Shown here: positions 18,114 to 21,100 of the stretch, piece by piece
Layout: each line of letters starts with the position of its first letter
Position numbering within the stretch: the stretch's first letter is position 1
Origin: Chlamydiales bacterium
GTDB taxonomy: Bacteria > Chlamydiota > Chlamydiia > Chlamydiales > JAAKFR01
Length of the DNA stretch: 64,000 nucleotides
Direction of reading: 5' to 3'
Assembly (NCBI GenBank): GCA_024233495.1
Contig: JACKPM010000002.1
Coordinates: forward strand, 21,377 to 85,376
Made by a program: the position numbers and the translations under genes
Notes under the pieces: generated by a model
Seen by the model: the letters and a program-made list of their open reading frames with translations, nothing else
The model's database searches: none
What the model was told of the DNA's origin: nothing

Positions 18114-21100
18114 TTGGCAACTTCAGCATCTGGCGCTCCCTTAACCCCCTTGAGCAAAGCTCAATCACATGCAGCTGTACGTAAAAATTGCCCCCCCCCC
18201 CCTGACATCAATTTGGACTGTCTCCTATCGGAGACAAAATCTGCCTCTATTTCGCCGCAGCTTTTTGCCCACATCTTCTTGGATGGACGGCTAAAAGATA
18301 CAGGCTATGAGGGGATCTCCCCCTATGAGCCTGCCCACTTTCTTCAAATTTTCTTTTGCCATCTCAAAAAAGCAATCCCCGAGCTTGGAGCAGAAGAAGC
18401 AGTGATGCGTAACCTTGCAGCGGATATAACTACTGATTGGACAAAAAACTACGTGAGGGGAGCACAAAATATAGCTAGGAGATTACGCGAACTAAAAGTT
18501 GGAGGATCAGCCCTGCTGCCTGGTGGCTGGAGGACTTCAAAAGGTGGGCACGCAATGCTCTACCGTTTCGAAAGAACCGCAAAAGGTTTCGACGTAATGA
18601 TTATCAATACGGGATCGGGAATTGAAACATTCCACGGAGAGCAAATCAACCATCACAAAACGCTCTGCTCTCCCTATGTTTACTTCAAAGATGTTCCAAT
18701 AGAGCTTGTGCTTCCTCTCGGTTCCCATGATATATGGATTCAAGCGCTCGTTTACTTCAATCAAGAGGAACAAAAAGAAGAGTTCCGAGCTGCAGCGATC
18801 TATCAGGGCCCCTTTAGAGAATTTTGGAAATATCAAGCTACACTTGAAGAGCACCTTAACCACTACATTACGCCTCAGAGGGATGGAACGTGTGCGTGGA
18901 AGAGCATGCTTGCCTATTTACGCTACACCCTCGCTCCACCCGTTTACGAACGTGTCAAGAGTTATATCCGCCTCTACGCTCTCGAGGCTATAATCCAAAC
19001 CCCCTTACGAATGCCAAATCAAGCGATTCAAGAGGGATGTGCAGTTTTTGCAAAAGAAGTAAGAAAGAAAGAAGGCGTTTACTATTCCTATAATGAATCT
19101 GAACAGATGCTTGAAGTCATGAGAAGGTGCAAGCAATGCTATCTTGTTGAAGATCTGCAAGCTGCTGAAGAGCCGCAAAATGCGACGCCTCCTCTTACGA
19201 TGAAACCCAACTGCATGCAAGGAAATATTTTAAACGCAAATATCTCTTACCCAGACACCACTGGAAGGTTGACGCCGGGTTTTACACTGCTGCTCGAAAA
19301 GCCATCTCCAACCACCATTGTGGACGTTAGTTCAAGGCTAGAGAAGCGACTTCAAGATCTTTCATGTGCCAACGCGCGCGAAGTAGGGCTGCAAATGGTG
19401 GCACACTATGTCATGCAGATTCCCCTAGAAAATGCTTTTTGGGAGCAAATTCCGAAAAAGGATGCAGCGATCTCTTCGCTCACTCAACTCCTTAGGGCAT
19501 TTCAACAAAACACGTTATTTCACAAATCTGTGCAGTCACCTCAAGAAATTGTGGTGGCCTATACGCTCTATATTCATATCTTCGAAATCTGCGCTCTTCA
19601 CTGCCCCGCGTATTTTGCAGGATTCGCTCCACAAAACAGGTGGTATAAATTTAAAACCGACCTCTTCTTCTACATACTCACCCCACAACTCCAAACACAC
19701 TGCAATCTTTTGCTTAGACATGTGAGACCGAAAGTAGGAACCTCGGCCTTTTCTTGCCCAGCCAGTTTAACCGAAGTTTCTCATGACATTTTAAAAGATT
19801 GCATCGAGCTCAAGTTTTACCGCTCCATACTGGATAGGGATAGTAAGCTCAGACAAGATTTTATTAGGAAAGCAGATGCATGGCTTTTCGAACAGAAAAC
19901 TTTTGTTCCTGACTCTACGAAAGCTCTCGCTATTCTTGCTCGTGGTTGGCAAGTAGATTTCCCTTTTGATTCATTGTGGCTCAACCACTTTCAGCACGCG
20001 CACTTTTTGATAGCAACAACTTTCAATTCTACTATTCAACGAGCATCAGATGCTATAAATCTTGGAAGACGCCTCCAACATAACCTAAATACCGACTCGA
20101 TCCAAGTGATTAACTTTGGAAGAGATAAAGCAAAAATAGATGAAGAGGCAGATATATTCTCACAATTTTGGCCTGGATTTGAGAAGCAACGCGGTAAAGA
20201 GATCATCAAAAAAGTAAGCTCGACACAAGCGCTCCAACGGTGTGGAACTGCAGATTCGACGCTTGAAGCGCAGACTCTTATGGCATTCTCACAAATGGCG
20301 ACAAGTGAAGAGATTTGGGCCTTGCGCCAAGTGGGGTGGAGTGGTGTAGAGAGAGCGCTTCAACCGATGCAACTCTTTTCTACTTTCCAAGCACACCCAG
20401 ACCACTTTAAAGATGAAAAATACGCCTCTCTCTTTTGGCTCTCACTATTTAAGGCGCCTTTTCAAGATATTGGAGACTATGCAAAGCTTGATCTTCGAGA
20501 AATTGTAGAGGAAAATCCGCTCCTTTTGCCTTATGTGGTCTCATTTGTAGAGAATGGAATGCGCCACTTCATCGATTTGCAAAAAGGGGGGGAAGAGGGA
20601 CCCAATGTCATCACCGCTCTATTTTTTGTGCGCGTAGCGACTGAGTTTGGATATGCCGCTCTTCACCTCTCCAATCAACAGGAGCGCATCGCTTATGTAA
20701 AAATGCTGGAAGGGTGTCACAAGATGATTGAGACACAGCTACATAAAAAGGAGCTTTCAGATAGTGAGAGAGGGCTGCTACACACCCACCGCCTCCATTT
20801 ACATCTCATGTTTTGGGAGATGGAGCGCTCTCACTTCAAGTTTGAGGAGTTCTTTGCAAGCTGGTTTGGCATGCATATGTTCAAGGTGGAGCAAGCACAC
20901 AGACTGCTGGGTCTAGAAAAGGTGTTGCATGCACGCATGTACCCACATCTCACACGACTTCAACAAAACAGCGAAGATGATCTCTCAAGCGCAGCGAGGG
21001 CAGTATTCGAGGCTCTGCAACTCCCTGCACTGGTGCAACATAAAAAAAAGTGGATGCGACCTCAAAGAGATGTTCTCACCTTAACATGCGATGAGCTGAA

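Follow-up and report, generated by a model that had tools for sequence, protein, structure and literature searches.

A cytosine tract at the 5' end of a giant gene

We analysed a stretch of 64,000 nucleotides (nt) from a Chlamydiales bacterium (assembly GCA_024233495.1, contig JACKPM010000002.1, positions 21,377 to 85,376), which we call the window and whose first letter is position 1. On its forward strand the window encodes an open reading frame (ORF) of 3660 codons, here termed the giant gene, and close to the 5' end of this gene lies an uninterrupted run of 12 cytosines (C12; Table 1). The initial annotation of the window had proposed that the run is a slipped-strand phase-variation switch, and had placed it in codons 26–30, about 80 nt into the giant ORF. 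Rereading the sequence bears out both the position and the codons. Positions 18189–18206 read TGCCCCCCCCCCCCTGAC, the uninterrupted run has exactly the boundaries listed in Table 1, and it begins 77 nt into the ORF when counted from TTG 18114, that is, in the first 2.5% of the gene. The run opens with the last base of the Cys26 codon, continues through three prolines encoded by CCC and closes two bases into a fourth, encoded by CCT; read from TTG 18114, codons 26–31 encode C-P-P-P-P-D.

Table 1. Features of the giant gene and its 5' region (positions in the window).
Feature	Coordinates	Strand	Basis or remark
Start region: Shine-Dalgarno-like AAGG (18103–18106), 7-nt spacer, TTG (18114–18116)	18103..18116	+	
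Giant ORF, 3660 codons, TTG start, TAA stop	18114..29096	+	ORF list; intact with 12 C
Out-of-frame ATG	18169..18171	+	in silico rebuild; no evident Shine-Dalgarno sequence upstream
C12 homopolymer, proposed slippage site	18191..18202	+	direct reading, homopolymer census, dinucleotide shuffles
TGA read right after the tract at 10, 13 and 16 C (TTG 18114 frame)	18203..18205	+	in silico rebuild
TTG at codon 34, the one in-frame start codon after the tract and before LFAHIFLD	18213..18215	+	no purine-rich sequence upstream
N-terminal conserved domain, residues 44–345	18243..19148	+	alignment; predicted fold LegA15/AnkH- and AnkD-like
LFAHIFLD, codons 50–57, first conserved motif of the family	18261..18284	+	downstream of the tract, upstream of Met98
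TAA closing the frame at 8, 11 and 14 C (peptide of 58–60 residues, 59 at 11 C)	18292..18294	+	
DUF3638 match, residues 1919–2102	23868..24419	+	Pfam, alignment
C-terminal hydrophobic pair, residues 3581–3609 and 3625–3643, with a short loop between	28854..29042	+	

A census of all homopolymers confirmed that no other run longer than 8 nt occurs in the window. C12 is the sole C/G run of at least 8 nt; elsewhere, C runs reach no more than 6 nt, G runs 7 nt and A/T runs 8 nt. None of 100 dinucleotide-preserving shuffles of the window contained a C12, and the number expected from independent base frequencies is 0.003 per window. We also applied a stricter null, in which the proteins of all 35 long ORFs of the window were kept and their synonymous codons were redrawn from the window's own usage. 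Among 3000 such resamplings, 1.4% contained a C/G run of at least 12 nt (p = 0.014 per window), and the modal longest run was 8. Compared with base composition, C12 is thus strongly non-random, whereas it is only moderately surprising once the four-proline peptide is given. The codon choice is atypical: CCC accounts for only 22.7% of the proline codons in the window, and all other window runs of at least three prolines (8/8) are written with mixed codons.

Tract length and reading frame

We rebuilt the locus in silico with 8 to 16 C and read the frames at each length. The giant ORF stays open at 9, 12 and 15 C. At 13 C, the prolines are followed directly by TGA, which leaves a product of 30 residues from TTG 18114, and at 11 C the frame runs on to a TAA, giving a product of 59 residues that ends in ...SSWMDG. 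A change of one base in either direction hence truncates the TTG-initiated product early, and everything that the initial annotation had said about the frames at 11, 12 and 13 C is correct.

The initial annotation had overlooked an out-of-frame ATG upstream of the tract (18169, Table 1). At 12 C, this codon opens an ORF of just 41 codons. At 10, 13 and 16 C, its frame becomes that of the whole giant ORF (MQLYVKIAPPPPD...), so that the 13 C state may be incompletely OFF. The use of this ATG is hypothetical, as no ribosome-binding site is visible ahead of it. We also considered a programmed recoding site (transcriptional slippage or ribosomal frameshifting) and rejected it, since the ORF is open over 3660 codons with 12 C as sequenced.

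The tract lies within the coding sequence

A frameshift switch depends on where translation begins. From TTG 18114, the product reads MATSASGAPLTPLSK, i.e. (M)ATSASGAPLTPLSK. The homologue P0002 (41% identity) begins, from its own ATG, with MASSSNPVPGGLGPK, which includes MASSSNPVP, and the homologue at locus L003 begins, likewise from its own ATG, with MASSSTSGAGGLPLK. Both N-termini match that of the giant protein; we thus conclude that TTG 18114 is the true start and that the tract is coding. By comparison with these relatives, the tract is within coding sequence, with homology on both of its sides in the same frame. In the stored gene call of the protein (P0001, 3648 residues), translation starts at TTG 18150, and the tract is coding there too.

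Initiation downstream of the tract, for example near Met98, had been named in the initial annotation as an observation that would speak against a switch. The conserved N-terminus and the position of the LFAHIFLD motif contradict such a start. The motif sits between the tract and Met98, and a start at Met98 (ATG 18405) was therefore rejected: it would remove the motif, and two homologues show conservation of the residues ahead of the tract. His53 of LFAHIFLD is invariant in an alignment of 14 sequences. Residues 1–45, the leader of the protein, are poorly conserved across the family, and homologues have 40–60 residues ahead of the LFAHI motif. Initiation at TTG 18213 is the only route to a non-coding tract.

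At the position of His53, the syntenic orthologue L007 has a leucine (LFALQFLD; L007:9600–9640, - strand). It keeps the later motifs GH(A/S)M and PQRDG.CAW.

Domains of the giant protein

In a Pfam scan of the whole protein, DUF3638 (PF12340) is the only family found (score 48.4 bits, cut-off 31, E = 9.5e-13), and it is carried by all 13 homologues retrieved. The region contains a Walker-A-like GAGKT (G1933, G1935, K1936) and an invariant DE at 2071–2072. No Pfam family was found in the N-terminal and C-terminal pieces, and neither the N-terminal profile nor the DUF3638 region had a sequence match in the PDB. An identity as a Pmp autotransporter was considered and discarded, as Pfam gives DUF3638 only and no autotransporter.

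Downstream of the tract lies a conserved domain (residues 44–345) in which H53, GW138–139, H146, M148, G167, G169, Y230, Q255, G258 and C260 are conserved. Its AlphaFold2 model has a predicted local distance difference test score (pLDDT) of 87.6 and a predicted template modelling score (pTM) of 0.89. Compared to the PDB with Foldseek, the model significantly matches Legionella effectors only, namely LegA15/AnkH (E = 2.6e-6, TM 0.58) and AnkD (E = 1.3e-4). LegA15 was initially credited with a cysteine-protease-like domain and was subsequently described as an atypical GTPase (PMC9757750). In a library of 1.84 billion proteins, the family of this domain has 619 representatives, mostly in proteins of 3000–4700 residues, and related proteins are also present in other chlamydial metagenome-assembled genomes and in one metagenome-assembled genome of the Legionellaceae. 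The modelled domain may thus be an uncharacterised effector domain common to chlamydiae and legionellae.

At its other end, the protein carries two hydrophobic stretches that are conserved in P0002, P0003 and L007. From its sequence, this pair resembles the membrane anchor of chlamydial inclusion-membrane (Inc) proteins: a two-lobed hydrophobic domain of the Inc type (about 40–60 residues) is present, although the extreme C-terminus of a 3660-residue protein is an atypical place for it. Ser, Thr, Ala and Pro abound in the first 25 residues, which is compatible with, but not diagnostic of, a type III secretion signal. Repeat units of the form 'EQ..L..EQI..I.S.EALQSL' are found upstream of the C-terminal pair; their copy number varies among homologues, with many more in P0003.

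Evolution of the giant gene

The RpoB encoded in the window is 91–95% identical to fragments from uncultured Chlamydiales and 82% identical to that of Chlamydia psittaci or Protochlamydia, which places the organism in an uncultured chlamydial lineage outside the known genera. The window also encodes a V-type ATPase operon and two Chlam_OMP paralogues. In the window, the giant gene lies between agcS and the gene of DAHP synthase, and the same arrangement is found in one Logan contig (L007; giant gene at L007:869–9751, - strand). This contig was the only carrier of the giant gene obtained when we looked for a conspecific locus by way of the neighbouring gene agcS, and it has no tract. The giant protein of this syntenic orthologue is 37% identical to ours, whereas the adjacent AgcS is 81% identical. 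At four further loci from two organisms (L008–L011; AgcS 78–79% identical), DAHP synthase and agcS are adjacent and the giant gene is absent, the gene order being V-type ATPase, DAHP synthase, agcS, Chlam_OMP, valS. In the genomes of P0002 and P0003, the homologue is found in unrelated neighbourhoods, beside FtsK or Nqr genes.

Synteny and the difference in identity thus point to a gene that has been mobile over evolutionary time and diverges much faster than its neighbours, a pattern that is often seen in host-interaction genes. Taken together, the predicted LegA15/AnkD-like fold, the Inc-like anchor, the fast divergence and the variable genomic location suggest, by inference, that the giant protein is a secreted, membrane-anchored, host-directed effector.

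Phase variation as an interpretation of the tract

Runs of G or C of this length slip by strand mispairing at rates far above that of point mutation. In Campylobacter, lengthening a tract from G8 to G11 raises its mutability 10-fold and introduces a bias to deletions (PMC3401435), and homopolymeric tracts at the 5' end of genes have been described as reversible inactivation devices (PMC2831843, PMC3315296). The locus has the structure expected of a contingency locus in that the G/C run is at least 8 nt long, the repeat lies inside the reading frame and a change in length alters the product. Furthermore, the effector-like product, as predicted, looks like the class of genes that usually carries such switches. 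Judged from the sequence, the C12 homopolymer is genuine, specific to this lineage and long enough to be hypermutable, it lies in the 5' coding part of a giant gene whose product is effector-like, and the locus is a plausible but unproven phase-variable gene. We lean slightly towards the view that the tract generates functional ON/OFF heterogeneity of the giant gene.

The proposed mechanism is as follows. During replication, the nascent and the template strand would mispair within the C run, so that one C is gained or lost, at a rate that should exceed the point-mutation rate by orders of magnitude. Because of this high rate, a clonal population would always hold a minority of cells in which the 11-kb gene is OFF, and these cells would be able to revert. 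In a tract of 12 C, the loss of a base (12 to 11) should be the dominant change, and OFF cells would mainly have 11 C. The OFF state would save some cells the cost of a 3660-residue secreted protein or would hide a protein that is recognised by the host. As an added layer, ribosomes that are not helped by EF-P should stall at four prolines followed by aspartate. On successive CCC codons, tRNA-Pro slips easily, which favours +1 frameshifting (PMC7577736, PMC8324841), and both the ON and the OFF state may therefore be slightly leaky.

Several observations weigh against phase variation. We read the 5' ends of five homologous loci (L001/P0002, L005, L002/P0003, L003 and L007). L005 comes from the same organism as L001, in a second sample, and equals it in the region read, which leaves four distinct loci. 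None of the four has a homopolymer in the leader, including the syntenic L007. The initial annotation had described the locus as a classic contingency architecture; this holds for the long, uninterrupted tract at the 5' end within the ORF and for the frame effects of gaining or losing one base. The absence of the tract from all four loci implies a young, lineage-specific feature rather than a conserved switch, and gives no sign that a switch was retained in evolution. The chance calculation points the same way. A genome of about 2 Mb holds 30–40 times the sequence of the window, so that codon chance alone would produce about 0.5 such runs and, given 1.4% per window, may still account for the origin of the tract at the scale of the genome. 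Likewise, a single long G/C tract in 64 kb gives no hint, within the window, of a genome-wide contingency repertoire.

What defines a contingency locus is a tract whose length varies within populations or between strains, and no sequence of the same species turned up in any of the collections searched. The organism itself has been seen once: P0001 is a single-member cluster at 90% identity, from one contig of 319,647 bp. The exact product had no record in the contig index, and the flank pattern GTAAAAATTG-N(8-18)-TGACATCAATTTGG had no match among metagenome contigs. Protein-guided scans of genome and metagenome contigs gave only relatives of 24–39% identity, and nothing closer than 43% was found among the 1.84 billion representatives. 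As the source appears to be a metagenome assembly, the called length of the tract is a consensus, which may hide heterogeneity or carry an error.

Alternative explanations

The alternative that survives best, which we consider unlikely yet in need of serious attention, is that C12 is an incidental polyproline-coding run, either written with CCC codons or recently homogenised or expanded, and hence a mutational liability instead of a switch. Frameshifted cells would then be dead ends under purifying selection, and the tract would decay by synonymous interruption. The prolines can indeed be explained at the protein level, since P0002 encodes N-PPP-D at the aligned position with mixed codons (aat cct ccg cct gat). 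Such a run is also consistent with a leader that is not conserved across the family, with homologues that have no homopolymer at the site, with a per-window codon chance that is not negligible at genome scale and with a window that has no other long tracts. However, coding sequence is normally purged of long mononucleotide runs (PMC3315296), and the window conforms to this, as its longest C/G run apart from C12 is 7 nt compared to the modal 8 in the synonymous resamplings. Furthermore, adaptive switches usually sit where C12 does, at the very 5' end of a gene that is costly, evolves fast and is effector-like (PMC2831843, PMC4514472), and even a tract that is not selected would yield ON/OFF heterogeneity. 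A young tract with atypical codons is compatible with selection for mutability, and just as well with slippage or homogenisation so recent that purging has yet to occur. The tract may thus be either a selected switch, i.e. a true contingency locus, or a tolerated recent mutational accident.

An error of sequencing or assembly in the length of the tract, such that the true gene is a frameshifted pseudogene or has no hypermutable run, seems very improbable to us. Homopolymers of at least 10 nt are error-prone on most platforms, and the single assembly offers no cross-check. Nevertheless, the called length keeps an 11-kb ORF open, with homologous protein on both sides in the same frame, which a random error would manage in only one of three cases; no other frame disruption occurs in the 3660 codons, and the tract is internal to a long contig with unique flanks, not at a contig end where poly-G artefacts gather. 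As a special case, a poly-G artefact of two-colour chemistry was rejected, the tract being internal and having in-frame homologous coding sequence on both sides.

Selection might also act on the PPPP peptide and not on the DNA run. Polyproline stalls ribosomes and is rescued by EF-P. Stalling at C-P-P-P-P-D (residues 26–31) could tie the output of the giant protein to EF-P activity or growth state, an idea to which we give little credence. It is in keeping with the partial conservation of PPP-D in P0002 and with the slippery nature of CCC runs for tRNA-Pro, which favours +1 frameshifting (PMC7577736, PMC8324841). However, three of the four distinct homologous loci have no polyproline in the leader at all, the exclusive use of CCC is left unexplained, and the effect can coexist with a switch at the level of the DNA.

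Barely credible, finally, is translation from TTG 18213, which would put the tract into the 5' untranslated region where its length has no effect on the frame: this codon shares the frame of the giant ORF and precedes the first conserved motif, and the gene caller also departed from the longest ORF by choosing TTG 18150, but two homologues have N-termini that match the residues encoded ahead of the tract, AAGG is rightly spaced from TTG 18114 whereas nothing purine-rich precedes TTG 18213, and the leaders of the homologues have the length noted above.

A variant of the phase-variation reading takes the out-of-frame ATG into account. Here, the tract would act as a three-state register, in which 12 C gives the product of TTG 18114, 13 or 10 C gives the product of ATG 18169, and 11 C is OFF; we regard this as improbable. 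At 12 C, the giant protein would have its native N-terminus, rich in Ser, Thr, Ala and Pro and presumed to be a secretion signal. At 13 or 10 C, the same giant protein would be made with an altered N-terminus of 12 residues (MQLYVKIAPPPP), and might be unexported or differ in level, whereas at 11 C the gene would be fully OFF. If true, this would be a homopolymer-driven switch of the initiation codon by which an environmental chlamydia controls what becomes of an effector.

Relation to known phase-variable genes

The initial annotation had compared the tract to the poly-G/C tracts that switch pmp genes in Chlamydia pneumoniae. This precedent is real (PMC6740158); a closer one exists in the same phylum. 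By position and gene class, the putative switch most closely resembles that of the cytotoxin gene CT166 in C. trachomatis, a 5' poly-G at gene positions 29–37, where 9 G is ON and 10 G is OFF, and where both lengths are mixed within read populations and among genomes (PMC4514472; Borges et al. 2015). In both cases, a G/C run lies within the first ~100 nt of a gene for a putative effector directed at the host cell, with one length that is ON and a one-base change that is OFF, the latter being predicted from the frames for the giant gene. In contrast to CT166, for which mixed 9-G and 10-G reads have been seen, the giant gene is known from one assembled sequence. Its tract is longer (12 compared to 9), its protein has DUF3638 and a LegA15-like domain with no match to a toxin glycosyltransferase in Pfam, and its host is an uncultured chlamydia outside the Chlamydiaceae.

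The pmpG genes of C. pneumoniae, C. abortus, C. psittaci and C. felis carry polyG tracts of 8–19 and polyC tracts of 13–24 with scattered frameshifts, which have been read as slipped-strand phase variation of host-interaction proteins (PMC6740158). As in the giant gene, these are G/C homopolymers in chlamydial coding regions whose change in length frameshifts the gene. However, Pmps are autotransporters in expanded paralogous families, with most tracts in the middle of the gene, whereas the giant gene is single-copy in the window, does not encode an autotransporter and has its tract at codons 26–30.

Outside the chlamydiae, Campylobacter jejuni is a species that lacks mismatch repair. Its genomes have about 29 polyG/C loci each (PMC4965091), with a modal length of 9 (PMC3401435, Bayliss et al. 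2012). These are also uninterrupted G/C runs inside reading frames that switch by one-base indels, and longer tracts are more mutable and biased to deletions. Unlike in C. jejuni, a single tract is visible in our 64-kb window, and with 12 nt it is longer than the modal 9.

The hypothetical three-state register resembles lic1A (licA) of Haemophilus influenzae. In that gene, the number of tetranucleotide (CAAT)n repeats shifts the ORF between start codons in different frames, so that more than two expression states exist, and the use of the alternative starts has been demonstrated experimentally. TTG 18114 (12 C) and ATG 18169 (13 or 10 C) would be the corresponding starts of the giant gene, with the differences that the repeat is a homopolymer and that ATG 18169 has no visible ribosome-binding site. 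Lastly, in inlA of Listeria monocytogenes, a frameshift in a short 5' poly-A leaves no more than a very short peptide, and its reversion is about 1000 times as frequent as point mutation (Orsi et al. 2010, PMC2831843). In both inlA and the giant gene, the latter a host-interaction gene by inference, the homopolymer is located at the very 5' end. The tract of the giant gene is a long poly-C instead of a short poly-A, and the reversion rate has been measured for inlA alone.

The slipped-strand mechanism itself is well known, and it is the target gene that is unusual. Our literature search found no report of phase variation in the environmental chlamydiae Parachlamydia, Simkania or Waddlia; proof of switching in the giant gene would thus add environmental chlamydiae, and a new class of targets, to the reach of the mechanism. 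If the phase-variation reading is true, homopolymer switching reaches past the pathogenic Chlamydiaceae, for whose pmp genes and CT166 it is known or proposed, to a deeply divergent uncultured lineage. The new target would be an effector-like protein of 3660 residues that combines a LegA15-like domain, a DUF3638 P-loop region and an Inc-like anchor, and environmental, protist-associated chlamydiae would hedge their bets over a costly host-directed protein. If switching is not real, C12 is an ordinary proline-coding homopolymer. The tract can be used as a marker of population heterogeneity in metagenomic reads of the source organism.

Additional observations

Among all fetched loci, the only other C/G run of at least 8 nt is a C8 at L003:1943–1950 (+), inside the homologue of the giant gene and about 390 codons from its start (cgt ccc ccc cca). 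In the window, GC skew is negative in all 4-kb bins (1–64000), and the + strand is thus C-rich throughout. The - strand carries rpoBC and the V-type ATPase genes. Provided that skew reflects the direction of replication in the usual way, the giant gene would lie on the presumed lagging strand, head-on to replication.

No Rfam RNA family was found in 17800–18500. A scan for sigma-70 promoters and terminators gave no convincing + strand promoter directly upstream of the giant gene, with one weak match at 17956–17985. On the - strand, a near-consensus sigma-70-like promoter is found at 18024–17995 (TTGACA, 18 nt, TAAAAT; 11/12 matches), which probably serves agcS. The two Chlam_OMP (PF01308) paralogues of the window are adjacent (14722–15567 and 15567–16430, - strand) and encode proteins of 281 and 287 residues, far shorter than classical MOMP; relatives have one to three Chlam_OMP copies at the same place.

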